From Clostridia bacterium (lineage in GTDB: Bacteria > Bacillota > Clostridia > Christensenellales > Pumilibacteraceae): a stretch of 64,000 nucleotides of DNA. The position numbers and the translations under genes were made by a program. Under the pieces are notes generated by a model. The model saw only the letters and a program-made list of their open reading frames with translations, did not search any database and was not told the DNA's origin. Positions 5,422-58,654 of the stretch are shown one piece after another. Positions within the stretch are counted from its first letter, which is position 1. The number at the start of each line of letters is the position of its first letter. The stretch is taken from the NCBI GenBank assembly GCA_900767465.1, contig CAAGAW010000009.1, positions 67,537-131,536 of the forward strand, in the 5' to 3' direction.

Positions 5422-6348
5422 ATGGAACTTACCGACGTTAAAATAAACGGCTGCGGATACGAGGCAGAGTTTTCTTCGAGGCTCGGCGCGACCTGTTACC
5501 GCCTTACGTACGAGCCGCTCGGCTGCGACGTACTGCGCACGCCGACTTCGGAAGCCGACCTTAAAATAAATCCGTATCTTTACGGCAATCCGATCCTTTT
5601 TCCGTGCAACCGTATAAGCGGCGGAAAGTTCACGTTCGACGGCAGAGAATACCGTTTTCCGATCAACGAGCCGAAAACGAATTGCCATATTCACGGCGCG
5701 CTGTACTCGCTGCCGTTTAAGATAATATATCTCGCCGCCGATAAAGCGACTTTCCGATATGAAGCGGCAAATGGCGAATACCTCGGCTTTCCGCACGCTT
5801 TTGCGGTCGAGCGCGAATATACCGCGAACAAACGCGGGCTCACCGAAAAAACGACTTTCGTTAACCTGTCGTCCGAAAAAATGCCGCTCACACTCGCGTT
5901 CCACACCACGTTCAACGCGCCTTTTTCGGGCAAATGTAAATGTTACGCGACCGTGCCCGCCGTTTCCGAACAACTCCGCAACGAAAATTTCCTTCCGACC
6001 GGCGAATGGAGTTCCGGCGAGCGGGAGGAGCGAATGCGCCGCGGCGAGTACGAAGTCGGCAAAATCCACCTTTCCGCGCTGTATAAAATCGACAAACCCG
6101 ATTGCTTTCTCGCAACCGACGGCGCGATTTTAAAATACTCCGCCTCGCCCGAGTACGGCTACCGCATGACTTACGCCGAAAGCGGCGGCGGATTTATGGT
6201 TATCGAACCGCAAACCTCGGCGATCGATTGCTTTCACCTGCCCGAACCGCCCGAAAAGCACGGGCTTATCGCGATAAACCCGGGGGAAAGCGTAACTTTT
6301 TCCTCTTCGATAAGCGTCCGTAAAAAAGAAGTTCTGCGCACCGACTGA
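5422..6348 (+). CDS. aldose 1-epimerase family protein (LacX-like)
   Basis: YGNPILFPCNRI and HIHGALY motifs typical of the galactose mutarotase-like fold. Confidence 0.75.
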   Translation: MELTDVKINGCGYEAEFSSRLGATCYRLTYEPLGCDVLRTPTSEADLKINPYLYGNPILFPCNRISGGKFTFDGREYRFPINEPKTNCHIHGALYSLPFKIIYLAADKATFRYEAANGEYLGFPHAFAVEREYTANKRGLTEKTTFVNLSSEKMPLTLAFHTTFNAPFSGKCKCYATVPAVSEQLRNENFLPTGEWSSGEREERMRRGEYEVGKIHLSALYKIDKPDCFLATDGAILKYSASPEYGYRMTYAESGGGFMVIEPQTSAIDCFHLPEPPEKHGLIAINPGESVTFSSSISVRKKEVLRTD

Positions 6349-6514: not shown

Positions 6515-9500
6515 ATGAAAAGAGGGAAACGGTGGACTTTGGCTCTTATATTGTGCCTTGTAGTCGCTACTATCGGTGCGGCTGCTGCGGGGTGCGGAAA
6601 AGCCAAAACTTACGTAATCAACTTTAATTCTATGGGGGGGGGGAACGGTTGCCGCGGCGGAATACACCGCAGGTGACACAAAATTCTACTTTCCCACGCC
6701 CGCGCAAGGCGATAAGTACGGATTCAGGTTCCTCGGCTGGTATTACGACGAGGCGTGTTCGGACGGTAAAGCCGCAGACGCCAAGAATATCGACGTAAGT
6801 TACGCAACCGACGGAACGATTACTCTTTACGCCAAGTGGTCGGATTTGTACAACATAAATTTCGAAACCTCTTCGGACGATTATTTCTCAAAAAAGGAAT
6901 ATCACTTCGGAGATAAGGTAAAACTTTCCGATCTGCCCGTTCCGAAGAATATGGAACGCGGCGGCGTTTCCGCGCCCTTCAAGTACTGGAAAAACGAAGC
7001 CGAGGACGTTGCGGTAACCAAGGACTTCAACATGCCGCCCAACGACGTGTACCTCAAAGCGGTTTACGATACCGGAATGAGCAATCAGTTCGATCTCGAC
7101 GACGACGGATTCGTAAGCAACCTCGGCATGGGCAAAAAGGCGTTCAGCGACGTTCGCGGCGCGTACGACGAAGAAACGGGTACGTACGCAAGCGCGGAAC
7201 TTACCGACGGCAAGGCGATGTCGTTTGACTTTACGATGACGTTCGGCGAATACGGACAGGACGCGGGCGCCGTTTTCGCGGCTAACTCGTACACCAACGG
7301 CACGTTCGATTCCCCGATGTTCTTCTATATCACCAGTACCGCTGCAAACGCGGCTAACTTCGGGTCTATTCAGATCTGGGGACCGACCGTGAAAGGCGAA
7401 GGCGAAGAAGCGGTCGTAACCGCCGACAGAGAACTCAAAATGCTGCGTATTTCCGACGCGGTTTTCGAGGGTTCGGAATATCTTGCCAAGATAAACGCGT
7501 GCCGCGAGTCGGGCGAACCCGCAACGTTTACGTACACCGTCCGCAGATGCGGCGATACGTGGATTATCGGCGTTGACGGAGTAGAGTACGTTTCGATCAA
7601 AGCGGGCGACGATGCGAAATCGGGCGGCAAAGTCGCTGCGGTAAACGCGGGCTACTGTGGAATAGTAACCAAAACCGATCAGGTTCATTATAAGAATATC
7701 GGACTCGTAGACGCGGACAAAGCGGAAATAACTTTCGACGCGGGCGAGGGCGCAACGATAACCGAAACCGAGCGCAAAATCGCTTGGGGAGAGGCTGTGG
7801 GAACGCTTCCCGTACCCACCCGCGAAGGACTTACTTTCCTCGGCTGGTTCTATTACGACGGCGCAACCTTAAAAACGCTTACCGATACGACGACGTTTAC
7901 TTCGGACGCGTGGAGAATTTCCGCGTTCGCCGAATGGGACGATCCGACGGCTCAGCATTATAACATAGTGTTCGACGGCGGCGAGGGCGGCTACACCCAC
8001 GCGGAGATCGAAAACTGGTACGAGGGCAAGCATATTACGCTTCCGAAACCCGAACGCCACCTTTTCCATACGTACGACGGCGCGTGGTACTACGACGCGG
8101 AATGTACTCAACCGGTTGACGAGAGAAACATAAGCGCGGCAACCGCCACGGGCGAGGGAGCGATTAAAACGCTCACCTTTTACGGAAAAGCGACCTACTC
8201 GAAATTCAGCAGCGGCGAGTGGAGCGAGGACGAAAACGGAAACATCACCGGCAGCGGCGAAACTTTCGTGGACGGAACCGCACTCGTCGTCGGCAAAACC
8301 TTCTCGGCGGATATCACGCTTCCCGCGTACGGAACAACTTACGGCAATACTTACTTGTATATAGGCTCGTCCGACGTAAAAGTCGCGCAGTATCGGGTAA
8401 TTATTCTCGGCACCAACGGCACCAACGTCAAGAAAAATACCAACGGTGCGATCCAACTTTACGAATACACCGACGGCAGTTACAAATTCCTCGGAGAGGC
8501 GTTCTCGACCCGTTACTATCTCGGAGCGCTTGCTGGCACGACGTATAATACCGGTTACGAGGCGTACAAGACGAGCGGCGAGCCGTTTACCTTCACCGTA
8601 AGCGTTGCCGCGGCGGCAGACAAAACGTACTTCTTCGTCAACGGAAACCTTCTTTATACCGTAAACAAAACCGTTGCCGGCAAGTATTCGGGCGTCGGCG
8701 TAGCAACCGCAAACACTTCCGCGTTCTCAGGTCTCAAAGCAGAGGACAGCAAAGCGGTTATCACGTTCAACGCGGACGGCGGCATTCTCACCGGCGACGC
8801 GACCCGCACCGTTGCCGCAGGCTCGGCGCTCGGTACGCTTCCCGAAGTGACGAAAGCAGGTTCCCGATTCCTCGGCTGGTTCGACGGCAACACCGCAGTC
8901 ACCGACGAAACCGTTATCGGCGCGGACGTTATGAACAAAACGATCGTTGCGAAGTGGGCGGAGCAGGTTACCGTTACGCTTAACGTAAACGGCGGCGACG
9001 CAATCGAAAAAACCGAATACGTAATCGATAAGGGCGCAACTCTCGGCGAGTCGCTTCCCGTTCCGACCCGCGCGGGCTATACTTTCCTCGGCTGGTATAA
9101 CGGCGATACGAAAGCGGACGACGATACGACCTATTCCGAAAGCGCAACTCTTACCGCTAAGTGGGAACAGAAAGTAACCGTCACCTTCGATCCGAAAGAA
9201 GGAGAGGTAACGGAAACTACCCGCCTTATCGATAAGGGCGCGGCAATCGGCGAACTTCCCGTACCGACGCGCTCCGAATACGCATTCCTCGGCTGGTTCG
9301 ACGGCGATACGCGGGTTACTACCGAATCGACCTTTACCGCAAACGTGACTCTTATAGCAAAGTGGGAATCCGCTCCGACTCATACGATCATCACAGTTAA
9401 ATACGACGACGGCGTAACGCCGGACGGAACTATCGACCTTAACGTCGGCACCGCTATCGGCTCGCAACTTCCCACACCCACTCGCGACGGCTACCGTCTC

Positions 9501-10760
9501 GACGGCTGGAAAGACAACGGCGGCAACGTCGTAACGGAGGAAACCACTTTCTCGACCTCTACCGCAACCATCACCGCTCAGTGGGTGGAAGTGGTAACCG
9601 TAACGCTCGACGCGAAAGGCGGCAGCGGAGTTACCGCGACTGCGTTTACGGTAGATAAGGGTACGGCTATCGGCTCGAATCTTCCTTCGTCCGTAACCGC
9701 GCCTCTCAACGGCGACGTGTTTATCGGCTGGTTCGACGGCGACAAGCAAGCCACCGCCGAAACCGTGGTATCCGAAAACTTAACCCTTACCGCGCATTAC
9801 GGCTGGGACGGCGCGACCGTTTCCGAATCGCTTAGCGGCGAAGGAACGACCGAAAAACCGTTCCTTATCGGCAGCGGAGCCGATCTTAAACTTCTTTCCT
9901 CTTCGTACGGCAGCGAAACGTATAAAGGTAAGGTTTTTGCACTCAACGCAAACATAAACCTCAACGACAAGGCGTGGACGCCTATCGGAACGACTGCATC
10001 GTTGTTTACCGGAACGTTCGACGGAAAATCGTTTGCGATTACCGGAATGAAAGTTGAGGGCGCAAGTTACCTCGGCTTGTTCGGTGTGATTAAGGCAACG
10101 GTAAAAGATCTTACTGTCGACGGCGAAGTAACCGGCACAGCCGGTGTAAACGGAATCCTTGCCGGACAGATTCAGGGCGGAAGCACGATATCCGGCGTAA
10201 CGACGAAAGGATCGGTTACCGGCGGAGGATCGGACGTAGGCGGAATCGCGGGAGATATTAAACTCGGTACCGGCAACGTTACGGTTTCGGATTGTGTCAA
10301 CTACGCAACGATTACATGTAACGCGTCGGCAACAGTTGCGCTTGCCGGAGGAATCACCGGCGGAACCGACAACATTGCGGTTATTATCAGAAATTGCGTA
10401 AACTACGGCAAAGTAACCTCGAAAAACAACTTCGTCGGCGGAATTGCAGGACTGTTCCGTAAACACGCCGATTCGCTTATCGAAAATTGCAAAAACTTCG
10501 GAAATATCACCGGTAAAACCGGAACGGGCGGTATCGCCGGCGGTAACAGGGCTCTTGTAAAGACGAGTTATTGCTACGGAGACGCTCTTCTCAACAATAA
10601 GGCGGCAAGCACGTACAATCTTGTCGGCAACACGACGCAAACACCGACAACCGGAGCGATTCCCACCGGCAGTATTATCGGACAAATGGACGATAAAAAC
10701 GGCGGAACAATCGACGAATCCTCCTGCGGACTTTGCGATGCGGAAGGCAACGCAATCTGA
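6515..10760 (+). CDS. large surface lipoprotein with about 10 Flg_new (Listeria-Bacteroides) repeats and a C-terminal GLUG-motif region; frameshifted in a G10 tract, so the signal peptide is out of frame with the body
   Basis: The ATG at 6515 has RBS and promoter and encodes MKRGKRWTLALILCLVVATIGAAAAGCGK, a signal peptide with a lipobox-like AAGC, then stops at 6676. The 1304-aa ORF in the -1 frame remains open upstream to 6618 and encodes in-frame Flg_new repeat sequence (FLGWYYDE...TLYAKW) before its first ATG. Nine G instead of ten would fuse the two parts. Repeats of the G..LP.PTR.GY.FLGWFDG...AKW type and GGIAG GLUG-like repeats were read from the translation. Confidence 0.6.
6634..6643 (+). 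repeat. homopolymeric G10 tract at the frameshift site (candidate slipped-strand phase-variation switch, or homopolymer sequencing error)
   Basis: Ten consecutive G at 6634-6643. Confidence 0.8.
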
Positions 10761-41044: not shown

Positions 41045-41068
41045 AGAGTAAAAACAAACGTCACATCG

Positions 41069-42437: not shown

Positions 42438-43640
42438 ATGAAGATAAGTTTTTCCCCTCCGGATATATCCGAGCGCGAAATTGCCGAAGTTGTCGATACG
42501 TTAAAATCGGGTTGGATCACTACCGGACCGAAAACCAAACGGTTCGAGCGTGAAATTGCGGAGTATTGCAACGTAAACAAAGCCGTTTGCCTCAATTCGC
42601 AGACTGCCTGTGCGGAAATGGCTTTGCACGTACTCGGAATAGGCGAGGGCGACGAGGTTATAACGACCGCATATACATACACCGCTACCGCTGCCGTCGT
42701 TTGTCACGTTGGGGCAAAACTCGTACTCGTCGACACGCAAACTGACAGCCTCGAACCGGACTACGACGCGATAGAAAAAGCAATCAACGAGCGAACCAAA
42801 GCGATAATTCCCGTCGATCTCGGCGGCGTTCCGTGCGACTACGACAGAATTTTCGATATCGTAAACGCCAAAAAATCGTTATTCCGTCCCGCAAACCGTA
42901 TTCAGGAAGCAATCGGCAGAGTTGTCGTGCTTGCCGATACGGCGCACGCGTTCGGAGCGGTTTATAAAGACAAAAAAGTCGGCAGTATTGCGGATTTTTC
43001 GGCGTTTTCTTTTCACGCCGTCAAAAACCTTACCACGGCAGAAGGCGGCGCTCTTACGTGGCGCACGATCAACGGAATCGACGACGAAGAAATTTACAAA
43101 ACCGTTCAACTTCTTTCGCTCCACGGACAAAACAAGGACGCGCTTGCAAAAACGAAATTCGGTGCATGGGAATATGACGTCGTCGCACCTTGGTATAAAT
43201 GCAATATGACCGACATAATGGCGGCGCTCGGACTCGCTCAACTTTCGCGTTACGACGGAATGCTCGCACGCAGAAAAACAATAATAGAGCGTTACGATTC
43301 GGCGTTAAAGCCTCTCGGCGTAAAGGTTTTACCGCATTTTACCGGCGATCATAAGTCGTCGTGTCATCTGTATATCACCGAAATCCCGAACGTTACGTAC
43401 GAGCAGCGCGGCGAAATAATCAATCGGATGGCAGAACGCGAAATCGCTTGTAACGTTCATTACAAACCGCTTCCGCTGCTTACGGCTTATAAGAACCTCG
43501 GTTTCGATATTAAGGATTATCCGAACGCGTACGATCACTTCGCGCACGAAATCACGTTGCCGTTACATACTTGCCTTACCGACGAAGAAGCGGATTACGT
43601 AATAAGCAATTTTGCCGGAATTTTGCGGGAGTATCTTTAA
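42438..43640 (+). CDS. DegT/DnrJ/EryC1/StrS family PLP-dependent sugar aminotransferase
   Basis: ISEREIAEVVDTLKSGWITTGPKTKRFEREIAEY N-terminus and a conserved Lys region (SFHAVKNLT) typical of the family. Confidence 0.8.
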   Translation: MKISFSPPDISEREIAEVVDTLKSGWITTGPKTKRFEREIAEYCNVNKAVCLNSQTACAEMALHVLGIGEGDEVITTAYTYTATAAVVCHVGAKLVLVDTQTDSLEPDYDAIEKAINERTKAIIPVDLGGVPCDYDRIFDIVNAKKSLFRPANRIQEAIGRVVVLADTAHAFGAVYKDKKVGSIADFSAFSFHAVKNLTTAEGGALTWRTINGIDDEEIYKTVQLLSLHGQNKDALAKTKFGAWEYDVVAPWYKCNMTDIMAALGLAQLSRYDGMLARRKTIIERYDSALKPLGVKVLPHFTGDHKSSCHLYITEIPNVTYEQRGEIINRMAEREIACNVHYKPLPLLTAYKNLGFDIKDYPNAYDHFAHEITLPLHTCLTDEEADYVISNFAGILREYL

Positions 43641-44524
43641 TGCTGATTCGCAAATGGGAAAAACTGCCCGCCGACATGCAGACGGCACAGGTGCGAAAAT
43701 ACTACGAAATCCTGCGAAAAAAGAACGTTTCGCTGTTTTTCAAGCGGGTATTCGACGTGGTTGTTTCCGCAATTATGCTTGTAATTCTGTCGCCGCTGTT
43801 TCTGATTCTGGCGATCGCAATAAAAATCGACAGCCGCGGTCCGGTATTCTATCGTCAGGAACGCGTCACGCAGTACGGAAAACGTTTCCGGATTTTCAAG
43901 TTCCGCTCGATGGTCGAAAACGCAGACAAAGGCTCGCAGGTTACCGTCGATCACGACTTGCGGATCACGAGAGTGGGAAAACTTATTCGTAAATGCCGCC
44001 TCGACGAAATCAGCCAACTTATAGACGTGTTCCGGGGTACGATGACTTTCGTCGGTACCCGTCCCGAAGTTCCGAAATACGTCGAACGGTACACGCCCGA
44101 AATGAAAGCGACTTTGCTTTTGCCCGCAGGCGTTACCAGCCTTGCAAGCATCTATTACAAGGACGAAGCCGAACTTCTCGACGGCGCGGAAGATACCGAC
44201 AAAGTTTACGTCGACAAAATATTGCCCGCAAAAATGTATTATAACCTTAAAGCGATCGAACGATTCGGTTTCCGGCGGGATATAAAAACCATGTTCATGA
44301 CGGTTTTCGCCGTCCTCGGAAAGGAATATAACGGCGACTACGTCCCGCCCGAAGAAACCGCGGAAGGAGTTATTTCCGCGCCGACCGAAAGCGATCGAAC
44401 GACGGAACCCCCGTCCGCAGAATCGCCCGAAAGCGCGCAAAACGCCGATACGGTCACGGAAAATCGCGACGCCGAGGAATCCCCCGATTTCGTCGCAAAC
44501 CACCAAGAAAATGATCCGGAGTAG
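43640..44524 (+). CDS. undecaprenyl-phosphate sugar phosphotransferase (PglC/WbaP-type initiating transferase) with acidic Ser/Glu/Pro-rich C-terminal tail
   Basis: One TM helix, then the KIDSRGPVFYRQERVTQYGKRFRIFKFRSM and LDEISQLIDVFRGTMTFVGTRPE bacterial sugar transferase motifs. TAATG overlap with the upstream gene. Confidence 0.8.
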   Translation: MLIRKWEKLPADMQTAQVRKYYEILRKKNVSLFFKRVFDVVVSAIMLVILSPLFLILAIAIKIDSRGPVFYRQERVTQYGKRFRIFKFRSMVENADKGSQVTVDHDLRITRVGKLIRKCRLDEISQLIDVFRGTMTFVGTRPEVPKYVERYTPEMKATLLLPAGVTSLASIYYKDEAELLDGAEDTDKVYVDKILPAKMYYNLKAIERFGFRRDIKTMFMTVFAVLGKEYNGDYVPPEETAEGVISAPTESDRTTEPPSAESPESAQNADTVTENRDAEESPDFVANHQENDPE

Positions 44525-44526
44525 GT

Positions 44527-45341
44527 ATGGAATTTTCGGTACTGATGTCAATTTATTATAAAGAAAATCCCGACTATCTCCGTCAGTGTCTCGATAGTCT
44601 TGTCTCGCAGACCGTAATGCCGACCGAAATCGTTATAGTGAAAGACGGTCCGCTTACGGACGGTCTCGAAAGCGTTTTTTCGGAATACGTTGCGAAAAAC
44701 GAAGGATTATATAAGTTTGTTCCTCTCGAAACCAATCACGGACTCGGCTTTGCGCTTGCCGAAGGAGTTAAGAACTGTTCTTACGAACTTATCGCGAGAA
44801 TGGATACCGACGATATTTCGAGAAAAGACAGATTTGAGATCCAGTTGAAAGAGTTTGCGTCCGATCCCGATCTCGATATATGCGGGAGCCGCATCGAGGA
44901 GTTCGAGGGCGACGTTACGAATATCGTAGCAAAAAGAACCGTTCCGCTCGAAGACGCGGCAATAAAAAAGTATCAGAAAAAAGAGACGGCTTCAATCATA
45001 TGACGGTTATGTTTAAAAAGTCCGCAGTACTGAAAGCTGGAAACTATCAGTCTTGCCTCCTTATGGAAGACACCCTTTTATGGGCGAACATGTTTATGAC
45101 CGGGGCAAAAGGGAAAAACGTTGACGACAGTCTCGTTTTCGTACGGATCGGAAAGGATATGTACGAACGCCGCGGCGGATTCGCTTACTATAAAAAATAT
45201 AAAGCGGGTCGTAAACGTGTCCGGCAAACCGGTTTTATCGGGTTTTGGGATTATCACACGTCGCTTGTCGTTCAGTTCATCGTTGCTATGATGCCGAACA
45301 AACTGCGCGGCTGGGTTTTTAAAAAGGTGTTACATAGGTAG
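44527..45341 (+). pseudogene. family 2 glycosyltransferase, frameshifted in an A6 tract (pieces 44527-45003 and 44880-45341)
   Basis: The N-terminal piece has VLMSIYYKENPDYLRQCLDSLVSQT...ARMDTDDIS GT2 motifs. The second frame continues ...RDGFNHMTVMFKKSAV. Seven A at 44977-44982 instead of six would give the contiguous ...YQKKRDGFNHM... Confidence 0.6.
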
Positions 45342-45394
45342 AGTTGTAAATGTTTGGTTGTATTCCCAAAACAAGTAAATCGAATCATTGAAAG

Positions 45395-46596
45395 GTGTGT
45401 ATAATGAATACAAAAATGTCTCGAATTCAATATGTCAGATTTAACGACATAATTGCATGTTGCGTTTTTTTACTTGTTTTACCGATTGCTTTGATTGCAA
45501 AAATATTTGTTCATGATTTTTGGCTTATCGGGGAGGAGAAAAATGAGGCTCGCGATAACGGGTATTGGTTTTTTAAATATGTTCGTGAAAATTACCCGAG
45601 ACAAAAAGTTGCTTACGTTATAAACAAAAAATGCTCGGATTATGAAAGAGTTAAAAATTTAGGTAAGGTTATTCAATGGGGAAGTTTCTCGCATTGGTTT
45701 TGGTATTTGACAGCAAAAAAAATATAAGTTCTCAAAAGGGGTGTAAACCCAATGCCGCTGCATGTTATCTATTTGAGGTGAAATTACGCTTATGGCGTAA
45801 CAAACGATACTTCCTACAACATGGGGTGATAATGAATGATTTGGAATGGCTGTATTACGATAAGTGTTATTTTAAACTTTTTTGCGTAAGCGCGAAGCCT
45901 GATTGTGATTATGTGTCGTCTATGTTTGGGTACCCAAAGGGAATAGTTGAATGTACGGGACTTGCTCGTTTTGACGAGTTGCATAAGCAACACGAGATAA
46001 AAAGACAAGTATTGGTAATTCCGACATGGAGAGAATATTTGGTCAGACCGCACGGAACTGTCGGAGAATCTGAATTAAGAAAAGAATTTCCGCAGTCGTT
46101 GTATTTCAACAAATGGGCTGAGTTACTTTGTGACGAAAGACTCGGAAATATTTTGAAATCCAGCGGGTATACGCTTTTGTTTTATCCTCATCGGAATATG
46201 CAAAAATATTTAGACTTTTTTTACAAATTGAATTTGGCGCAATGTGTCACAATTGCCGATCCGACGGTTTTGTCAGTGCAAGAAGCGTTAATTCAGTCAA
46301 AATGTATGGCTACGGACTATTCTAGCGTATTTTTCGATTTTGCTTATATGAAGAAACCGGTAGTTTTCTTTCAGTTTGATGAAAAAGAATTCAGAAGCGG
46401 ACAGTATAAGCAAGGCTATTTTGATTACCATTGCAATTCTATAGGGGAGTGGTGTTGTACCACGGAGGATTGTTTGACTTTGATGAAAAAACAATTAACG
46501 AATGATTGCCCGGAAAACGATAGAATTTCTGACTTTTTCGAGATGTACGACAATAAAAACTGTGAAAGAATATACAATGCGGTTTTAAACCATTGA
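45395..46596 (+). pseudogene. CDP-glycerol glycerophosphotransferase (TagF/TagB-like), frameshifted in an A8 tract (pieces 45395-45727 and 45676-46596)
   Basis: The upstream frame ends ...GSFSHWFWYLTAKKI*. The downstream frame continues KKNISSQKG...YFLQHGV, matching the family's ISSH and QxWHG motifs. Nine A at 45715-45722 would fuse them. Confidence 0.55.
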
Positions 46597-46605
46597 GAGG
46601 TAAAT

Positions 46606-47684
46606 GTGAAAAGAATTCTACACGTTGTATCAACATTAGCACAAGGCGGAACCGAATCCGTTGTGCTGAATTATTTTTCAAATATGAATAAAGAGGAAAT
46701 CATATTTGATTTTCTCGTTATTTGGGGTAACAGTAAAAAAGAATATGATGATGTTCTTAAGTCCCAAGGGTGCAGAATATATAGAATGAAAAACCCGCCG
46801 AATCGTTTTTGTGAGCATGGCAAAGAACTGAAAAAGTTTTTTGACGGCAACGAATACGATATCGTACACATACATGCAATGTCTTCTTTGCGTTATCGTG
46901 TAGCGAAGATCGCAAAAAAGAGTGGTGTAAAAACCGTAATATACCATTCCCATATATCATCTTGTGATAAAAACAAATTATTACACAGTTTGTGCAAAAG
47001 GATATTAAATAAGTGGTGTGACTATAGATTTGCTTGCTCCGAAGTAGCCGGTAAATTTATGTATAACAGTAATTTTACGATTATAAGGAATGCTATAGAC
47101 TTAGAACGCTATGCTTTCGATAATAAAAAGCGCAAAGCATTGCGTGAAAGATACGGATTACAGGATAAATTTGTTGTCGGTAACATCGGGCGATGACTAC
47201 GGTAAAAAACCAAAAGTTTTTATTTCCCATATTACATTTACTCGCCAGAAAAGAAGACGCCATCTTGTTTCTTATTGGAGACGGTAGCGAGATTGATACG
47301 CTTAAAGAGACAGCGAGACAGTACGAGGTAACTGACCGCGTGATATTTGCCGGTAATGTCGGAACGGAAGTTTGTCAATACTATAGTATTTTCGGCTGCT
47401 TGGCTTTTCCTTCTCGATTTGAAGGTCTTAGTATGGTTTTAGTGGAGGCACAGGCGAATGGTTTGCCGATCATAGCGTCGGATTTGCTGTCCGATGAACA
47501 TAAAATATCTAACAATTTTACTTTTTTGCCTATAACGGAATCTGACGAAAATTATTTTGTGTGGGCAAAATCGATTATCGGGTGCAAGAATGGACGTTGT
47601 GATAATATGCATGTTTTGGAAAAAGCTGGTTACGACATAAAGACTGAAGCGAAGAAATTGCAAGAATTTTATTTGAGTTTATGA
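46606..47684 (+). pseudogene. family 4 (GT-B) glycosyltransferase, frameshifted near 47188-47195 (pieces 46606-47196 and 47193-47684)
   Basis: The first piece ends ...FVVGNIGR*. The second begins MTTVKNQKFLF...FLIGDGSE...FPSRFEGLSMVLVEAQANGLPIIASD, the GT4 EX7E region. A single-base insertion in gggcgatg would give the canonical contiguous VGNIGRMTTVKNQ. Confidence 0.6.
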
Positions 47685-48927
47685 AAACTATAAAGAGACA
47701 AAATAAAATAGACTTACTAACATTTAATTGCGCGTTGTTTTTGCTATTTTTATCTTTTTTTGAAGAATCAACTTTATGGAAGTTTTCTTACATTGGGTTG
47801 GTTGCGGTTTTTTTATTTCCGATTGTCCTTTTTGTCGGTATGCAGTTTAATTGCATAACTTTAGATTCGCACGATAAACAAATAGTATTAGGTTTCTGTA
47901 TTTTTGCTCTGATACAGGGTTTAGGTATTAGTTTTTCTTCTATTTATAAAAGTCTAACGCCGATATATCGCACAATTTCAGTTGTCTTAACTATTGTATA
48001 TATTAGACATGTTATTTGGACGGATGAGAAATTCCGAGCGTTGGATTTTTTGTCTTTTTTTGTTATACTGTTTGGGTTCATTTCATTTTTATTACCGCAA
48101 CAAGAAGATACTAATCCATTTTTTGGAAATTTGAATACTGTCGGAGCGCTGTGTTTTTCTTTTTTTGCTTTAAATTATATTCAATTTTTGAAAACGCATA
48201 AGTATATCAAATTATTGTATTCGGGTTTGAGTATGTTGTTGGTGATCATAAGTAATACGAGGACAGCAATGTTTTTGATTTTGCTTGCAATCGTTCTATG
48301 TGTGGCAATCAAGTGTTTTATCGGCAAAAATATAAAACCGTTAGCATTTTTCGTTCTTTCAATTGGTATCATTGTTCTTTTTATTGTGTTTTACTACAAT
48401 GTAAAAAGTAAACAACTTTATTCATTATTAAATAGTATATCCAAAGCTATATTCCATAAAAATTTTGATTCCGGAAGACCCGACTTGTGGAAATCGGCAG
48501 TGGATGTAGTTGGAGATATGTGGATTATGGGTAGAGGAACGTTTGTTGAGTTGTCTGATTTTGTCGTGGGAAAAAAACATCGCATAGCGTTTATTTTGAT
48601 ATTTATTTAAAAAACGGCATATTGGGTCTTGTTTTTTATATTATCGCGATAATAAATGTATTGAAATCAAAGAAAACATGGAAATACAATAAATTAAATG
48701 TATTTATAATGATTATCGCTTCCATATTATTGCTGTATAATGCTATGGCTGTTACGCTTATTAAACCAAGATCCGGTATTGGATTGATCCATTGGATACT
48801 AATTGCTCTGCCATATAATAATATCCAAACTGCAGAAGAAAATAACAAGTATCGTTGTGCGGACAAGGTTCAGACTGTGGAAAATGTAAAAGCAGATGTC
48901 GGAACGTCGACAAGCGTAAGATGGTAA
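47681..48927 (+). pseudogene. O-antigen polymerase/ligase-like (Wzy_C) polytopic membrane protein, frameshifted in an A7 tract (pieces 47681-48610 and 48622-48927)
   Basis: 10 or more TM helices with NTRTAMFLILLAI (Wzy_C). After the A7 tract at 48571-48577 the -1 frame reads KKTSHSVYFDIYLKNGILGLVFYIIAI, the conserved HN.Y...GiiGl end of Wzy proteins. Eight A would restore a single ORF. Confidence 0.55.
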
Positions 48928-48967: not shown

Positions 48968-49999
48968 ATGATATACGTATCTGAACAAATAACAAATAAT
49001 AAGCACGCGGGGAGTAAGGCTCGCAACGATGTCGAAGCGATTTTAGCGCAGGTCGTCGGGAATAAACTTGGTTACGTCTGCGACAATAAAGGCGGAGGTT
49101 CGTTATTTACTAAAGTAAAACGGGCGTTGAGGTTGCGTCGACAGGGAAAGATAATCAGTCGATTAAAAAACGAAACGATATTTATTCAATATCCGGTAGA
49201 CAGGAGAAAAATCGTCGGACTTTTTGAGTCGATTATAAAAGCATCAAAGCGTAATAAGACGGTTCTCATAATTCACGACGTCGAATTTATAAGGGAAAAA
49301 CTTGTCGGGAAGGCAAAGGATCGCGAAGTCAGGTTGTTTGATTCGGCAACCGTTCTTATATGTCATAATCGGGCAATGATCGAAGAGTTACAACGTAGCG
49401 GCGTAACTCACCCTCATTTTGTGAATCTCGGTATTTTCGATTATCTGACCGACGGAATCCCTGCAAACGAGCATAGTTTCGATAAGAGCGTCGTTTATGC
49501 CGGAAACCTCGCAAAAGCACCGTTTTTAACCGAATTAAACGCGTTTGACCTTGGTTGGGATTTTGTTTTATACGGCATCAATTGTCCACAAACAACGAAT
49601 CCGGCGATTAAATACAACGGAGCGTTGTCTCCGGAAGACCTTGTAGGGAATCTGACTCAATCGTTCGGGCTTATATGGGACAGCGAAACGGTTGACGGGT
49701 GTACCGGTAAAATCGGCGAATATACTCGTTATAATAACCCGCATAAACTTTCTTTATATCTCGTTTCGGGGATGCCCGTAATAGTATGGTCGCAGGCTGC
49801 CGTTGCCGATTTTGTAGAGAAAGAAAAAGTCGGTTTCGTAATCGATTCGCTCCGCGATATAGCCGCAAAACTTGATAATCTGACGGAAGAAGAGTACGAA
49901 GAATATCGCAGAAATGCAGATCGCTTAAAGCAAAAACTTTATTGCGGCGAGTTTATGAAAGCGGCAATCGTACGAGCGATTGAATTATGTAAAGGGTAA
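48968..49999 (+). CDS. beta-1,6-galactofuranosyltransferase (WbbI-like)
   Basis: Block-by-block similarity to E. coli WbbI as recalled from memory (GSKARNDVEAI, IHDVEFIRE, ICHNRAMIEEL, VVYAGNL, FGLIWDSETVDGCTGKIGEYTRYNNPHKLSLYL..PVIVW..AAVADFV). Sits directly upstream of glf. Confidence 0.65.
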   Translation: MIYVSEQITNNKHAGSKARNDVEAILAQVVGNKLGYVCDNKGGGSLFTKVKRALRLRRQGKIISRLKNETIFIQYPVDRRKIVGLFESIIKASKRNKTVLIIHDVEFIREKLVGKAKDREVRLFDSATVLICHNRAMIEELQRSGVTHPHFVNLGIFDYLTDGIPANEHSFDKSVVYAGNLAKAPFLTELNAFDLGWDFVLYGINCPQTTNPAIKYNGALSPEDLVGNLTQSFGLIWDSETVDGCTGKIGEYTRYNNPHKLSLYLVSGMPVIVWSQAAVADFVEKEKVGFVIDSLRDIAAKLDNLTEEEYEEYRRNADRLKQKLYCGEFMKAAIVRAIELCKG

Positions 50000-50004
50000 A
50001 ACTT

Positions 50005-51105
50005 ATGAAATACGATTATCTTATAGTCGGGAGCGGGTTGTTCGGGGCGGTATGCGCGCACGAACTCAAATCCGCCGGTAAGCGGGTGCTTGTCGTGGAT
50101 CGGAGAGATCATATCGGCGGCAACGTTTACACCGAAAAAATCGAAGGCATAAACGTGCATAAATACGGCGCGCACATTTTCCATACGTCGGACAAGCGCG
50201 TGTGGGATTACGTCAACCGTTTTGCCGAATTCAACAATTACGTCAATTCGCCGATCGCAATTTACAAGGACGAACTCTACAATCTGCCGTTCAATATGAA
50301 CACGTTTTCCAAATTGTGGGGCGTAAAAACTCCGGCGGAGGCGGCTGCGAAAATCGAAGAAGAAAAGGCGAATTTCCATATCGCCGAGCCGAAAAACCTC
50401 GAAGAGCAAGCGATAAATCTTGTCGGCAAAACGATTTACGAAAAACTCATCGAGGGTTATACGGCAAAACAGTGGGGCAGACGGTGCGTGGATCTTCCGG
50501 CGTTTATTATTCGTCGCTTGCCTGTAAGAATGACGTTCGACAACAATTATTTCAACGACCGCTATCAGGGAATCCCGATCGGCGGGTACACTCCGATAAT
50601 CGAAAAAATGCTGGACGGCGTCGACGTAAAACTCGGTTGCGATTACCTTGCAAGCAAGGAAGAGTTGAATCGTCTCGCAGATAAAATAATTTATACGGGA
50701 GCGATCGACGAATATTACGGCTATCGTTTCGGAGAACTCGAATATCGTTCCGTGCGGTTTGAAACCGAGGTTCTCGACGAAGTCAATCATCAGGGCAACG
50801 CCGTCGTAAATTATACCGAATACGAAATTCCGTATACCCGCATAATCGAGCATAAACACTTTGAGTTCGACGTTATATCGCCTAAAACCGTCGTATCGAA
50901 AGAATACCCCGTAACGTGGAAACGCGGCGACGAACCGTATTATCCCGTAAACGACGAATGCAACGCGGTTTTGTACGCAAAGTACAAATCGCTCGCCGAA
51001 GCCGAAACCAACGTCATGTTCGGCGGAAGACTCGGTACGTACAAGTATTTCGATATGGACGACGTTATCGCGGCTGCCCTTGACGCGGCGGACACGCTCA
51101 GATAA
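50005..51105 (+). CDS. glf: UDP-galactopyranose mutase
   Basis: YDYLIVGSGLFGAVCA FAD motif, HIGGNVYT, HKYGAHIFHT and full-length Glf-like sequence. Confidence 0.9.
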   Translation: MKYDYLIVGSGLFGAVCAHELKSAGKRVLVVDRRDHIGGNVYTEKIEGINVHKYGAHIFHTSDKRVWDYVNRFAEFNNYVNSPIAIYKDELYNLPFNMNTFSKLWGVKTPAEAAAKIEEEKANFHIAEPKNLEEQAINLVGKTIYEKLIEGYTAKQWGRRCVDLPAFIIRRLPVRMTFDNNYFNDRYQGIPIGGYTPIIEKMLDGVDVKLGCDYLASKEELNRLADKIIYTGAIDEYYGYRFGELEYRSVRFETEVLDEVNHQGNAVVNYTEYEIPYTRIIEHKHFEFDVISPKTVVSKEYPVTWKRGDEPYYPVNDECNAVLYAKYKSLAEAETNVMFGGRLGTYKYFDMDDVIAAALDAADTLR

Positions 51106-52590
51106 ATGAAAGAAAAGAGTATAAAACGCAATTACGTATACAACGTGGTATATCAGGTGCTTGCAATTATAGTGCCTATTATAACCATGCCTTACGTGTC
51201 GCGCGTTCTTAACGCCGAAGGGATCGGGCTGTACAGTTACGGCTCGTCCATCGCGTCGTACTTCGTGCTTGCGGCAACGCTCGGAACGACCGTATTCGGA
51301 CAACGCGCGATAAGTTACGTTCAGGGCGACATTGAGGCGAGAAGCCGCGCGTTCTGGGAACTTTTTATCTTCCGTCTGATTTCTACTGCGATCGCGCTCG
51401 CGGCTTACGCGGCGGTGTTTTTCGCGTTCCTTAAAGATAACGGAACTATGTATCTTATTCTCGCGCTCAACGTAGTCAACGTCGCGACCGATATATCGTG
51501 GTTTTTTCAGGGTATCGAAGAATTCGGAAAAATAGTGATACGTAACGTCGTTTTTCGTATCCTTAACCTCGCGGCAATCTTTATTTTTATTAAAACCGCG
51601 ACCGATCTTTACAAGTACGTTCTTATAGTCGTAGGATTTACCACGGCGAGCAACCTTTCGCTTTGGTTTATGATGAAAGGCAACGTTTGCCGGGTCAAAG
51701 GAATAAAACCGTTCCGCGACGTAAAGGAAATTCTGCAATTTTTTATACCTACGGTCGCGACTCAGATCTATACCGTCCTCGACAAATCGATGATCGGTTG
51801 GTTTACCGGTTCGGACGCCGAAAACGGTTATTACGAGCAGGCGGAAAGAATAGTAAAAACGACGCTTACCGTCGTTACCGCGCTCGGAACGGTTATGATA
51901 CCGCGTGTATCCAAATACTTCAAAGAGGGTAAAACCGACCTTATGCGCGAGTATCTGTATAAATCGTATCGTTTTACGTTTTTGCTTGCCGTGCCTATCG
52001 CGTTCGGGTTGCTCTCTACCGCAAGCACGCTTGTTCCCGTTTTTCTCGGCGACGGCTACGAACCGTGCGTTTTGTTGATTCAGGTTTTCAGCGCGCTCGT
52101 TATCCTTATAGGATTAAGCAACGCGAACAATCTTCAACTTTTCGTGCCTACGGGCAGGCAGAATCTGCTTACCGTAACGGTTACCGTCGGAGCGGTCGTT
52201 AACGCCGTGCTCAACGTAATTCTTATACCGAGATTCGCCGCAACCGGAGCGTGCGTTGCGTCCGTTATAGCCGAAGGAGTCGTAACGCTTCTCGGATTTG
52301 TCTTTATCATAAAAGCCAAAGATCTTGCCGTCGGAAAAATCTTCCTCTCGTCGTGGAAGTACTGGGTCGCGGGAGCGGCGATGTGTGCGGCGGTATACGC
52401 AGTCAAATCCGTCATGCCGATTGCCGTGTGGGCTTTGGCGACGCTGATAGTTTTCGGCGCGGTTGCGTATTTCCTGATACTTCTTATCCTTCGTGACGAA
52501 CTATTGATAGGTTCGATAAAAGCCGTTTTGTTCCGTCTGAAAAAGAAGCCCGCCGAAGTCCCTGCCGACGAAAACGCAGATAATAATTAA
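51106..52590 (+). CDS. wzx: oligosaccharide flippase (Wzx, MOP superfamily)
   Basis: 494 aa with 12 or more TM helices. N-terminus YNVVYQVLAIIVPIITMPYVSRVL is typical of Wzx/PST. ATG overlaps the glf stop. Confidence 0.75.
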   Translation: MKEKSIKRNYVYNVVYQVLAIIVPIITMPYVSRVLNAEGIGLYSYGSSIASYFVLAATLGTTVFGQRAISYVQGDIEARSRAFWELFIFRLISTAIALAAYAAVFFAFLKDNGTMYLILALNVVNVATDISWFFQGIEEFGKIVIRNVVFRILNLAAIFIFIKTATDLYKYVLIVVGFTTASNLSLWFMMKGNVCRVKGIKPFRDVKEILQFFIPTVATQIYTVLDKSMIGWFTGSDAENGYYEQAERIVKTTLTVVTALGTVMIPRVSKYFKEGKTDLMREYLYKSYRFTFLLAVPIAFGLLSTASTLVPVFLGDGYEPCVLLIQVFSALVILIGLSNANNLQLFVPTGRQNLLTVTVTVGAVVNAVLNVILIPRFAATGACVASVIAEGVVTLLGFVFIIKAKDLAVGKIFLSSWKYWVAGAAMCAAVYAVKSVMPIAVWALATLIVFGAVAYFLILLILRDELLIGSIKAVLFRLKKKPAEVPADENADNN

Positions 52591-52982: not shown

Positions 52983-53927
52983 ATGAAAAAAGTTCTGGTT
53001 ATCGGCGGCACGGGTGCGATGGGAACATATCTCGTTCCGAAACTCGTCGAGCGCGGATATAAGGTGGACGTTATCGCGAACGACGAAGTTTTGCCTGAGA
53101 ATAAAGCAAATCTCACGTATAGCAGAGCCGACATGTACGACGAGAAGCTCGTGCGCGAAACTCTTAAAAACGCGTACGACGGCGTAGTAGATTTTATGAT
53201 TTACGACGATACGAGAATCGCGCGTTATCTGCCGATTTATCTTGACAACACCGATCATTACATTTATTTTTCGTCGTATCGAGTATTCGCGGACAAAGAA
53301 CATCCCATTGTCGAAACTTCGCCGCTCGGCGTGGATGTAAGCGACGATCTCGATTATCGTTACGCGAACGATTACGGCATTTACAAAGCCAAGGGCGAAA
53401 AACTCATTCGCGGATTCGGTCGCAACAACTGGACGATAGTCCGTCCCGCAATCACGTACTCGAAAAAACGCAGTCAGCTTATGACGCTTGAACGTCAGCA
53501 TATTCTCAAGTATCTCGACGCGGGTAAACCTATTCCGCTTTACGAAGGCGCGAAAAACGTTCAGGGAACGATGAGCTGGGCGGGCGACGTAGCCGAAATG
53601 CTCGCGCGGTTGCTGTTTAACCCCGCGGCAATCAAAGAAGATTTCAACGTGACTACGTCCGAACACCACACGTGGGACGAAATCGCAGGTTACTACAAAG
53701 ATATTTTCGGGCTTGACCATGTCTATGTAGGCGAGGACGAATATCTCACCGCACGCGACGGCGTCGTCAACGACTGGAACAAGTGGCAACTTCGCTATGA
53801 CCGTATGTTTGACCGCATAATGGACAACTCGAAAGTGCTTAAGGTAACGGGCATGAAACAATCCGACCTTATCTCGCTCTACGACGGACTCAGCCGCGAA
53901 AAGAAAACCATACTCGAACGCCCGTAA
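52983..53927 (+). CDS. NAD-dependent epimerase/dehydratase family (atypical SDR) protein
   Basis: MKKVLVIGGTGAMGTYLVPKL Rossmann motif, the YGIYK (YxxxK) catalytic motif and a GGAGG RBS. The longer antisense ORF 52764-54167 is rejected. Confidence 0.7.
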   Translation: MKKVLVIGGTGAMGTYLVPKLVERGYKVDVIANDEVLPENKANLTYSRADMYDEKLVRETLKNAYDGVVDFMIYDDTRIARYLPIYLDNTDHYIYFSSYRVFADKEHPIVETSPLGVDVSDDLDYRYANDYGIYKAKGEKLIRGFGRNNWTIVRPAITYSKKRSQLMTLERQHILKYLDAGKPIPLYEGAKNVQGTMSWAGDVAEMLARLLFNPAAIKEDFNVTTSEHHTWDEIAGYYKDIFGLDHVYVGEDEYLTARDGVVNDWNKWQLRYDRMFDRIMDNSKVLKVTGMKQSDLISLYDGLSREKKTILERP

Positions 53928-54012
53928 GTTTATTAACGCCCAAAAAAACGAAAGATCGCCCGAAGCGGCGGTCTTTTTTTCGATTTTAGTACTGAACCGA
54001 TCTGAATCCGAT

Positions 54013-54129
54013 TGTTTCGCTGCCGACTTCGTTCGGTTTGCTATCCTATCGAGGCCGGTGTTCCGATTGAGGGCGCGCAAGCGTAAACACTTGACGAAAT
54101 AGCGGAATTGTGTTACACTATGGATAACG
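54013..54129 (+). repeat. 118-bp direct repeat, copy 1, containing promoter TTGACG-17-TGtTACACT
   Basis: Near-identical to 54881-54999, with one indel and two substitutions by eye. Contains the -35 at 54091-54096 and an extended -10 at 54111-54119. Confidence 0.8.
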
Positions 54130-54260
54130 TGGACAGAAGGTTGGTGGATATTTGGAACGACATACACTTGGAATCAAGCGCAATATCTTGGTGGAACTGT
54201 TGGTAGATATGTTCAATTTAAACTTATATGTGATTTAATGAAATTGGCAAAGAGTTTTTA

Positions 54261-54869
54261 ATGAGAAAAATACAGAATATTATATCAATATTTACTTTAA
54301 CAATTTTATGTTTATCATTTGTTGGATGTTCAAAAGGTTGTTTTGCAAATGAACATAAGTGGCTATATGAAAAAATGAGTGAAATTCCTATTGAATACGA
54401 AGGATATTACTTTGAAAATATATATGGAACAGAGGAAGATGAATCTGCAGCAAGTCAGAATACTATAAAAGAGTATATTTTTAGAGGTAAAACATTAACT
54501 GTCGATGAATATACAATGATTTATGATGAAAACAAAATTGTTATAGATATAAATTTTATTGAACAAAGAAGTCAAGTTTCAAGTTATATCAATCATATAT
54601 GGGATGAGAAGGGTAAAATTAGGACACATCAACCTTGGATTTCCGGGATACAGGTTTTTGATGATAAAATCTTTCTAAGTACTTGTGGCATAGAGACGCA
54701 AATGGCAGGTACAGCGAGAGGCGTAACTCCGTTCGTATTATACTATTATGACATAGATAATGATAAAATTTTATATTGTGGATTTTTTGCAGGGAAACAA
54801 AATGAATATGGGACATATGAAGGGTTCGTTCCAAGGTCTCCTATTCATTTAGTAATTAGAAAAGGATAA
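54261..54869 (+). CDS. hypothetical lipoprotein encoded on an AT-rich (about 30% GC) cassette
   Basis: Signal peptide with lipobox LSFVGC. No recognisable family. Codon usage and GC differ markedly from the flanking roughly 55% GC DNA. Confidence 0.55.
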   Translation: MRKIQNIISIFTLTILCLSFVGCSKGCFANEHKWLYEKMSEIPIEYEGYYFENIYGTEEDESAASQNTIKEYIFRGKTLTVDEYTMIYDENKIVIDINFIEQRSQVSSYINHIWDEKGKIRTHQPWISGIQVFDDKIFLSTCGIETQMAGTARGVTPFVLYYYDIDNDKILYCGFFAGKQNEYGTYEGFVPRSPIHLVIRKG

Positions 54870-54880
54870 GGAGAGAAAAA

Positions 54881-54999
54881 TTGTTTCGCTGCCGACTTCG
54901 TTAGGCTTTGCTATCCTATCGAGGCCGGTGTTCCGATTGAGGGCGCGCAAGCGTAAACACTTGACGAAATAGCGGAATTGTGTTACACTATGGATAACG
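54881..54999 (+). repeat. 118-bp direct repeat, copy 2, containing the same promoter 35 nt upstream of the RBS of the 55035 gene
   Basis: Direct comparison with 54013-54129. Confidence 0.8.
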
Positions 55000-57466: not shown

Positions 57467-58654
57467 ATGAAATCTTTAAAGGAATTATATAAAGCCGGAA
57501 GAGGACCGTCGAGTTCACATACGATAGGACCACAGCTGATTGCCGAAAAAATATTGGAAAAATACGGAAAACGGAGTTATAGCGTAACGCTTTACGGTTC
57601 GCTTGCGCTGACGGGGAGAGGACACGGAACCGACAGGGTTTTAAAGCATGTTCTGGGCGAAGAAACGGAAATACTTTTTGACGAGAAAGAAAGAAACTTA
57701 CGTCACCCCAACGAGATGAAAATATACGCCGTCGTCGGAGGAGAAAGAGAACTCCTTGCAACGGCGCAAAGCGTAGGCGGCGGCGTTATTATAGTAAACG
57801 GTAAAATATATCCCGACGGAGCGGACGTATATAAGGAAAGGAATTTTACGGAAATAAAAGAAGAATTGAACGAAAACGGCGGAGATATCGTTTCTTACGT
57901 GGAAAGAAACGAAAAAGACGTCTTTTCGTATTTAAGAGAAATGTGGCAAATAATGAAAGAGAGCGTAACGTCGGGACTTGCGAAAACGGGGGTTTTGAAC
58001 GGTCGCCTCGGGTTGGCGCGAAAGGCAAAGTCTTTATACGAACAAGAATCGCTGTTTGAAAATGCCATAACTAGAGAAAATCGGATATTATCCGCCTATG
58101 CGCTTGCCGTAGCGGAGGAGAACGCCGATAACGGTGTCGTGGTAACGGCTCCGACCTGCGGATCGGCAGGAGTGTTGCCGTCGATTTTGTATTATATGTA
58201 TAAGGAAAATAACGTCTGCGAGGAAAAGATAATCAAGGCAATGGCCGTTGCGGGCGTTGTAGGCAACGTGGTGAAACATAACGCTTCTATAAGCGGGGCC
58301 GAATGCGGTTGTCAGGCGGAAATAGGAGTGGCGTGCGCTATGTCGGCGGCGGCTCTGGCTTATTTATACGAGCTTGACGTCGAAACCGTAGAATGCGCTG
58401 CCGAAATCGCGCTCGAGCATAATTTGGGGTTAACGTGCGATCCGGTTATGGGATACGTTCAAATACCGTGCATCGAGCGGAACGCTATGGCTGCAAATAA
58501 GGCTGTAAATGCGGTAACGCTTGCGAAGTACTCTAAGGATAAGCACAAAATAGCCTTTGACGATATAGTGAAGGTTATGTATGAAACGGGAAAAGATATG
58601 AATAAAAACTATAAGGAAACGTCTCTCGGGGGTTTAGCGGCGTTATACAGATAA
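57467..58654 (+). CDS. sdaA: L-serine ammonia-lyase, iron-sulfur-dependent (single-chain short form)
   Basis: GRGPSSSHTIGP beta-domain motif plus alpha-domain motifs APTCGSAGVLP and ECGCQAEIGVACAMSAA. Confidence 0.8.
   Translation: MKSLKELYKAGRGPSSSHTIGPQLIAEKILEKYGKRSYSVTLYGSLALTGRGHGTDRVLKHVLGEETEILFDEKERNLRHPNEMKIYAVVGGERELLATAQSVGGGVIIVNGKIYPDGADVYKERNFTEIKEELNENGGDIVSYVERNEKDVFSYLREMWQIMKESVTSGLAKTGVLNGRLGLARKAKSLYEQESLFENAITRENRILSAYALAVAEENADNGVVVTAPTCGSAGVLPSILYYMYKENNVCEEKIIKAMAVAGVVGNVVKHNASISGAECGCQAEIGVACAMSAAALAYLYELDVETVECAAEIALEHNLGLTCDPVMGYVQIPCIERNAMAANKAVNAVTLAKYSKDKHKIAFDDIVKVMYETGKDMNKNYKETSLGGLAALYR

Follow-up and report, generated by a model that had tools for sequence, protein, structure and literature searches.

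Several genes of the O-antigen cluster of Yersinia pestis are reportedly hit, mostly by single-nucleotide lesions. The cluster is intact in relatives, and frameshift mutations silence it in this one lineage, leaving a "rough," glycan-less surface (Skurnik 2000, as cited in PMC4319491). This cryptic cluster is the closest precedent for the locus described here, in which four consecutive surface-glycan genes (positions 44527 to 48927) are frameshifted in an uncultured gut Clostridia bacterium. They lie in a 64,000-nucleotide stretch of GenBank assembly GCA_900767465.1 (contig CAAGAW010000009.1, forward-strand positions 67,537 to 131,536), all of which was analyzed and which we call the window. 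The genes are predicted to encode a GT2 glycosyltransferase, a TagF-like CDP-glycerol glycerophosphotransferase, a GT4 glycosyltransferase, and a Wzy-type polymerase, and the surrounding region (42.4 to 53.9 kb) is, judging from its gene content, a Wzx/Wzy-dependent cell-surface polysaccharide locus. We consider it probable that, in this clone alone, the serotype-specific core of the locus was truly inactivated by several hits, each of them the deletion of one base at a site prone to slippage. The core is best read as a glycan cassette that has recently become cryptic (pseudogenised), and neither as an artefact of sequencing nor as a proven phase-variation system; the strain most likely lacks the predicted glycerol-phosphate-containing polymer. 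Unlike Y. pestis, the organism is a Gram-positive-type gut commensal known from metagenomes only; the glycan is a predicted Wzy-dependent, glycerol-phosphate-containing cell-wall polymer and not a lipopolysaccharide O-antigen, and the loss is found in one clone and is not fixed in the species.

Other described systems resemble the locus in part. The Wzy-dependent cps loci of Streptococcus pneumoniae acquire capsule-loss and suppressor mutations, and spontaneous frameshifts and deletions abolish their polymer. The clostridial locus shares with them an initiating transferase, glycosyltransferases, Wzy, Wzx, and a variable central cassette between conserved flanks, and it too suffers initiating-transferase lesions, here in a different strain (L190, described below). 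It belongs to another phylum and has another gene set (a TagF-like protein, a Gtf3-like glycosyltransferase, and Glf), no CpsA-D-type regulators were identified beside it, and, unlike in cps, four hits fall in one allele. Contingency loci in glycan genes include poly-G tracts in the lipooligosaccharide and capsule genes of Campylobacter jejuni, a poly-C tract in siaD of Neisseria meningitidis, and poly-C and poly-A tracts in the fucosyltransferase genes of Helicobacter pylori. There, as here, a one-base homopolymer change in a glycosyltransferase or capsule gene can switch a surface structure off, and the A9 tract of the TagF-like gene has a recurrent OFF allele. In contrast to those loci, the tracts described here are shorter, consist of A, derive from conserved lysine codons, are interrupted in some strains, and are ON nearly everywhere, and one lesion out of the four lies outside any repeat. 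In Buchnera and Blochmannia, poly(A)-tract frameshifts are rescued by polymerase slippage, according to the work cited in PMC5009743. These are likewise one-base changes in poly-A tracts of AT-rich genes at which slippage can restore some product. The clostridial runs, however, are 6 to 8 nucleotides (nt) long and not 9, the genome has 52% GC so that the cassette alone is AT-rich, and nothing indicates that the frameshifted state is maintained.

The breaks were located from a listing of open reading frames (ORFs) and a three-frame translation of the window. In each of the four consecutive plus-strand genes, the downstream frame equals the upstream frame minus 1, and adding one base per site yields single ORFs of 271 (GT2), 397 (TagF-like), 359 (GT4), and 415 (Wzy) amino acids. 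The GT2 gene (44527-45341) is divided into a 158-residue N-terminal fragment (44527-45003) and a C-terminal fragment in the -1 frame (45000-45341), with the frameshift at an A6 tract (44977-44982); the repaired protein matches PF00535 across the break (2e-24). The TagF-like gene (45404-46596) is divided into an N-terminal fragment of 107 residues (45404-45727) and a C-terminal fragment of 306 residues (45676-46596). Its frameshift lies at an A8 tract (45715-45722; upstream frame gcA AAA AAA Ata) that reads A9 or AAAAAAGAA in intact alleles, and the repaired protein matches PF04464 at 6e-29 over profile positions 17 to 366 of 367. In the Wzy gene (47681-48927), an N-terminal fragment of 309 residues (47681-48610) is followed by a return to the native frame from position 48578 (downstream ORF 48578/48622-48927). 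The site is an A7 tract (48571-48577; upstream frame ggA AAA AAA cat) where intact alleles have A8 or GAAAAAAA. The conserved Wzy_C stretch SHSVYFDIYLKNGILGL is out of frame in the window, and the repaired polymerase matches PF04932 across the break (E = 1e-15).

The lesion in the GT4 gene, which encodes a GT-B-fold enzyme (46606-47684), is of a different kind. Here the sequence GGGCGATG (47188-47195) lacks one G, at 47191, from the CGG (or AGG) ATG that is present as GGGCGGATG or GGGAGGATG in all 16 other accessions covering the site. One G of a GG pair is gone, with no homopolymer or repeat at the site. Of the resulting ORFs, the first (46606-47196; 196 residues) ends with residue 196 and the second (47193-47684; 163 residues) begins with Met197, which places the cut precisely at the domain junction, with an ATGA stop/start overlap and no residue missing, and the repaired protein matches PF13439 and PF00534 across the break. 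Because the lesion lies outside any repeat, GT4 would not be readily revertible by slippage. Were four broken genes placed at random among the approximately 50 genes of the ORF map, the chance of their being consecutive would be about 47/230300, or 2e-4. The clustering thus exceeds chance.

To type the four sites across strains, loci were fetched from public assemblies and scored per accession; the counts below are of accessions and not of hosts, and some accessions may be duplicate assemblies of one sample. Two contigs, L001 (European Nucleotide Archive [ENA] ERZ27229642, k119_81385, 417,846 bp; MEGAHIT-named) and L004 (BRIT16-1_SAMN02333939_METAG-scaffold_380; SPIRE-style name), carry the same four breaks and match the window at 100.000% identity for 21.0 and 15.6 kb, respectively. 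A third, L002, comes from another metagenome and is 98.96% identical. It has one extra base at each site (A7 versus A6 at 44977, A9 versus A8 at 45715, CGG versus CG at 47191, and A8 versus A7 at 48571) and encodes intact proteins of 271, 397, 359, and 415 residues. More generally, the intact alleles are approximately 97 to 99% identical to those of the window, belong to the same species, and encode proteins of exactly the repaired lengths. Outside the clone, the sites are in frame in 21 of 21 accessions for GT2 (all A7), 15 of 16 for TagF (12 A9 and 3 AAAAAAGAA), 16 of 16 for GT4 (CGG or AGG), and 5 of 5 for Wzy (2 A8 and 3 GAAAAAAA).

Clustering of proteins at 90% identity gave a concordant picture. 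Full-length forms (397, 359, 271, and 415 residues) dominate the clusters, with 415 residues in 11 of the 13 members of the Wzy cluster, and the fragments encoded by the window (158, 107 plus 306, 196 plus 163, and 309 residues) occur on only two to three contigs, all of this clone. One further 107-residue TagF N-terminal fragment belongs to L092 (Logan SRR25448542), the sole exception in the frame census. This contig represents a distinct strain (98.3% identical, with two amino acid differences in the TagF N-terminal fragment) that carries TagF A8, encoding 107 plus 306 residues, while its GT2 and GT4 sites are in frame. These comparisons bear out the original prediction, made from the window alone, that four consecutive glycan genes are frameshifted, that a single extra base restores each of them, that three breaks fall in poly-A tracts, and that the downstream frames continue the family sequence: the positions agree with the ORF listing, the translations, and the alignment to L002, which has exactly the one additional base at each site, and Pfam matches span the breaks in the repaired proteins. 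The prediction had also proposed that orthologues in relatives be compared and had foreseen a decayed locus if no intact ones existed. A locus decayed in this clone alone is what the data favour, with intact orthologues common elsewhere.

We propose the following course of events. Three of the losses would be slipped-strand deletions in coding poly-A tracts (A9 to A8, A8 to A7, and A7 to A6), and the fourth would be the loss of one G from the GG pair in GT4. GT2, the glycerophosphotransferase, and the polymerase would be truncated and GT4 would be split, so that repeat units would no longer be completed or polymerised and no polymer would be made. The first hit would have abolished the pathway; the other cassette genes may then have been free of selective constraint and have been hit at their most mutable sites, while the conserved flanking genes would have stayed under purifying selection. 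Phage or antibody pressure on the surface glycan may have been the selective driver. The rate of slippage rises with homopolymer length, and no homopolymers in the intact cassette are longer than A9 and A8, which were hit along with one 7-nt tract. That A9 and A8 were both hit is what length-dependent slippage would predict, since the longest tracts should go first once selection is lifted.

Polymorphism that is private to the window against all comparators points in the same direction. The four broken genes contain 12 private single-nucleotide polymorphisms (SNPs), 6 non-synonymous and 6 synonymous, plus the four indels, of which three are private to the clone and the fourth also occurs in L092. 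In the intact flanking genes, 3 of the private SNPs are non-synonymous and 13 synonymous (3 and 4, respectively, in the aminotransferase gene, 4 synonymous in the initiating transferase gene, and 5 synonymous in the Gtf3-like gene), and there are no indels. The direction of this contrast fits relaxed constraint.

Different lesions were found in the same locus in other strains. In L190 (KORP18-1_SAMEA104445497 scaffold_327, positions 5157 to 5998), a 46-bp frameshifting deletion splits the initiating transferase gene, at 43640-44524 in the window, into ORFs of 139 and 141 residues. In L099 (7783-8385) and L189 (HILD21-1_SAMEA7519194 scaffold_234), homology to wzy ends at window position 48387, at codon ∼236. 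Past this junction, L099 continues to its contig end with ∼600 bp of unrelated, GC-richer sequence containing repeated TGCAGT..ACTGCA palindromes; a 155-residue ORF in this sequence has no Pfam match, and the replacement is either an insertion, possibly of a mobile element, or a chimeric contig end. Another member of the wzy cluster, P0173 (179 residues), diverges at codon ∼167, and L188 has an additional C in GT2 that we weighted lightly, as it lies 55 nt from the contig end. Together with the TagF A9-to-A8 change of L092, these different lesions suggest recurrent loss of the polymer, which seems to be tolerated or favoured.

Several points weigh against inactivation and decay as we propose them. 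The contrast between non-synonymous and synonymous SNPs is not significant, either against the flanks (Fisher P = 0.11) or against polymorphism among intact strains (48 non-synonymous to 86 synonymous; P = 0.36), and simple neutral decay would not be expected to leave as many as four indels for 12 private SNPs. The polymer would be lost after a single hit; four may instead point to switching or to a structure altered step by step under selection. Blocking the pathway downstream of the initiating transferase could be expected to do harm, yet the initiating transferase gene is intact in this clone. The lesions rest on assembled consensus and not on reads, the three assemblies that carry them (the window, L001, and L004) may all stem from the same reads, and the window assembly has at least one homopolymer discrepancy, a G10 tract that is G9 elsewhere.

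Phase variation was one of the two explanations put forward in the original prediction. The GT2, TagF, and Wzy poly-A tracts would in that case be independent slipped-strand ON/OFF switches through which the population could alter its surface polymer or shed it, with the window captured in an all-OFF state. Contingency loci classically act on surface-glycan genes, the ON state at three of the four sites is a homopolymer longer by one base (A7, A9, and A8, which are moderate lengths), and the TagF A9 tract has an independent OFF allele in L092, whose GT2 and GT4 are ON. The same clone also has a poly-G tract of differing length between assemblies in a surface lipoprotein gene. The ON tracts are, however, short (A7 to A9) compared with classical contingency tracts, and slippage cannot bring the operon back to ON, because the GT4 break lies at a GG pair and not in a repeat. 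Nor are ON and OFF states both common among related strains. Outside the clone, the fractions in frame given above leave the L092 TagF A8 allele as the one extra OFF allele in the accession census, no mixed combination other than that of L092 occurs, and the four sites are OFF alike in each of the clone's three assemblies. The tracts are also not maintained beyond what the protein requires. The TagF A9 tract is GCA AAA AAA AAT, which encodes the family-conserved A-K-K-N motif in AAA codons, and synonymous changes interrupt the TagF tract with AAG in three accessions (the AAAAAAGAA alleles) and the Wzy tract with GGG in three (the GAAAAAAA alleles), so tract integrity is not preserved. Classical contingency switching is therefore weakly supported, and as an explanation of the four lesions we regard it as unlikely. 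What stands of it is the recurrence at TagF, where the A9 tract acts as a mutational hot spot. We do not class the locus as a contingency system.

The poly-G tract lies in a gene for a 1,414-residue surface protein (window 6515-10760) that has a lipoprotein-type signal peptide (MKRGKRWTLALILCLVVATIGAAAAGC...) and Listeria-Bacteroides (Flg_new) repeats. At 6634-6643, ∼40 codons into the gene, G10 is the window's only G/C run of at least 6 nt, and with it the ORF from 6515 stops after ∼53 codons and what follows, 6846-10760, is out of frame. G9 and an uninterrupted 1,414-residue gene occur at ten other loci, two of them in ENA assemblies of this very clone. The G10 of the window is either a poly-G consensus error in its assembly or a minority phase variant. 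As a control for a truly variable tract, the site showed no variation among strains, with G9 in all 10 other loci.

A sequencing or assembly artefact, in which the organism has the four bases but the consensus lost them, through undercalled homopolymers or thin coverage of the low-GC core, is in our estimation quite improbable. In its favour, all four differences are one-base deficits, three of them in A runs; all fall close together where the GC content of the window is lowest (31 to 39%); the G10 of the window is a homopolymer discrepancy that two other assemblies of the clone do not reproduce; and the three lesion-bearing assemblies may go back to the same reads. That discrepancy, the sole difference between the window and the two ENA assemblies over 5.9 kb, also identifies the window as an assembly separate from L001 and L004. 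The A-tract states do not depend on the assembler, given that all three assemblies agree on the four glycan lesions. The lesions recur in MEGAHIT-named and SPIRE-style contigs, names that point to short-read assemblies, where consensus errors at A6 to A8 are rare. For SPIRE, the main ENA selection rule required instrument_platform = ILLUMINA, and every sample was assembled with MEGAHIT (PMC10767986); L004 appears, from its name alone, to be a SPIRE record. The same accession series gives an intact allele from another sample (ERZ27232018), the independent sample L092 has the same TagF A8 allele, and the GT4 lesion lies outside homopolymers.

The distribution of homopolymers in the window argues in the same direction. 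There are 122 of at least 6 nt, 25 of them in the core, and only 3 of those 25 differ from L002. None of the 14 T tracts does, a pattern that strand-symmetric read error would not predict, and six T7 tracts in the core are all in frame. Elsewhere, in-gene tracts of at least 7 nt, including A8 at 37389, T8 at 38746 (FeoB), and several A7 and T7 tracts, are all in frame except the G10 at 6634-6643. The expectation that the rest of the window is intact thus holds for these tracts but fails at the 1,414-residue surface protein gene, which G10 frameshifts. The second explanation of the original prediction, systematic undercalling of A homopolymers by long-read assembly, did not survive: we rejected it as unlikely on the grounds that identical lesions occur in the MEGAHIT- and SPIRE-style contigs, that other long homopolymers are in frame, and that the GT4 break is not in one.

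A further possibility is that the locus, rather than decaying, sits in a regulated or selectable "dimmed" state. Short poly-A tracts in three genes would be independent low-rate switches, slippage on the A AAA AAA heptamers and a translationally coupled split GT4 would keep up a trickle of enzyme, the surface polymer would be tuned combinatorially under phage or immunoglobulin A pressure, and the poly-G tract of the lipoprotein gene would be a further switch. The TagF A8 allele that recurs in the unrelated strain L092 would then be one example of such switching. We think it very unlikely that the locus works in this way.

Leaky expression without switching, through RNA polymerase slippage, -1 ribosomal frameshifting, and a two-polypeptide GT4, would mean that full-length enzyme is partly made and the locus turned down rather than off; this seems more doubtful still. 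Slippery heptamers do occur in frame, as A AAA AAA at TagF and Wzy, which is a perfect X XXY YYZ heptamer in the upstream frame, and as G AAA AAA at GT2, with none at GT4. A -1 shift, or one additional A in the transcript, would recreate the native AKKNISSQKG in TagF and GKKTSHSVY in Wzy, and the GT4 cut at the domain junction before Met197, with its ATGA overlap, costs no residue. But heptamers and an ATGA overlap are automatic by-products of a one-base deletion in Lys-Lys codons or before Met-Thr, and no stable structure follows the heptamers (fold z-scores of 0.26, -1.29, and -0.19). Bacterial transcriptional slippage on A or T runs is documented, with efficient slippage on runs of 9 A or T (PMC5009743), whereas the runs here are of 6 to 8. 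In relatives, each of the four proteins is read from one continuous frame, which means that the frameshift is not conserved as a decoding feature. Programmed frameshifting was accordingly rejected, there being neither downstream structure nor conservation in relatives. The ATGA overlaps at GT2 (45000-45003) and GT4 (47193-47196) were also considered as designed split genes and rejected as compatible with chance: in a simulation, random one-base deletions gave an ATGA overlap in 39% of cases in GT2 and 21% in GT4, and the probability of at least two among the four genes was 0.11.

The gene content around the four broken genes is that of a Wzx/Wzy cluster, in which an initiating transferase, a flippase, and a polymerase (frameshifted in this clone) are present together. 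All of the following genes are on the plus strand and intact. The conserved 5' flank comprises a DegT/DnrJ-type sugar aminotransferase of 400 residues (42438-43640; PF01041, E = 5e-97), also 400 residues in L001 and L002, and the initiating phosphoglycosyl transferase (Bac_transf) of 294 residues (43640-44524; PF02397, E = 1e-53). Downstream of wzy, the conserved 3' flank begins with the Gtf3-like glycosyltransferase of 343 residues (48968-49999; precomputed Pfam PF26334 and PF26337). It is followed by a UDP-galactopyranose mutase (Glf; 50005-51105; PF03275, E = 3e-82), a Wzx-type flippase (Polysacc_synt/MurJ-like; 51106-52590; PF01943, E = 8e-23; PF03023), and an NAD-dependent epimerase/dehydratase (52983-53927; PF01370), the last gene of the locus. 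Among the annotated ORFs in the surroundings of the locus, none was noticed that would encode a chain-length regulator or a tyrosine kinase module; no systematic search was aimed at these.

The window averages ∼52% GC, and 45 to 49 kb, at only 31 to 39%, is its lowest-GC stretch; of the four broken genes, the three that follow GT2 are the low-GC cassette genes. An exact match to the Gtf3-like protein occurs on 15 public contigs, including L003, L005, and L006. These three have flanks that are 97.9 to 98.9% identical to the window and the same 343-residue Gtf3-like protein. The interval from their initiating-transferase/GT2 genes to Gtf3 is taken up by another central cassette (LicD/IspD/epimerase/GT4/Wzy/Caps_synth), and their GT2 is a different, 276-residue gene. 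Because the flanks are the same and the cassette is not, the center of the locus appears to be a low-GC, exchangeable, serotype-specific cassette between conserved flanks.

Homologues of the TagF-like protein are numerous (2,321 at E ≤ 1e-30) and, among the matches listed, mostly ∼390 to 400 residues long. The repaired protein is 50 to 74% identical to 13 aligned homologues of 389 to 401 residues each, with 88 invariant columns, and one homologue of 71% identity is labelled Candidatus Borkfalkiaceae. A scan of JGI metagenomes with the TagF protein returned distant homologues only (at most 60% identity) and no more alleles of the cassette. A scan of genome contigs with the Gtf3-like protein returned no match; with LepA, the best of the matches listed, to the MAG "Clostridiales bacterium UBA10677," reached 90% identity, so that the species itself was not among them. 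Several record names of matching contigs state human gut as the source.

Strains of the species also differ at other sites of the window. A serine dehydratase gene (SDH_beta plus SDH_alpha, 395 residues; 57467-58654) is intact in the window but not in other strains: in L002, 4 bp of an AGAA repeat are deleted at 57684 and ∼535 bp (window 57984 to 58520) are absent, and L003, L005, and L007 encode fragments of 82 plus 35 residues. Two ∼120-bp repeats (54011-54129 and 54880-54999; 98.3% identical) bracket an ORF at 54261-54869 that encodes 202 residues, is of very low GC (0.19 at third codon positions), and has no Pfam match. In L003-type strains, the segment between the repeats is absent and the alignment jumps from 54128 to 54880; it looks like a segment gained or lost by recombination between the repeats. 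Directly after a peptidyl-prolyl isomerase (PPIase) gene, an intergenic poly-A tract (41045-41055) is A5 in the window and A7 in L002, and further intergenic A-tract length differences between the two lie at 53942 and 55701. By these intergenic differences, homopolymer indels are the usual type of indel between strains of the species.

The inactivation proposed here is biology of a familiar kind and, as events go, ordinary. Provided that the lesions are real, a serotype-specific cell-wall glycan has been knocked out naturally in this clone of an uncultured Clostridia lineage from the human gut, and targeting of the glycan by phages or antibodies would lead one to expect its repeated loss in hosts. 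Annotations should mark the four genes as strain-specific pseudogenes and should not "repair" them. A census of exact-sequence alleles across public assemblies can, moreover, separate artefact, switch, and decay without recourse to reads.

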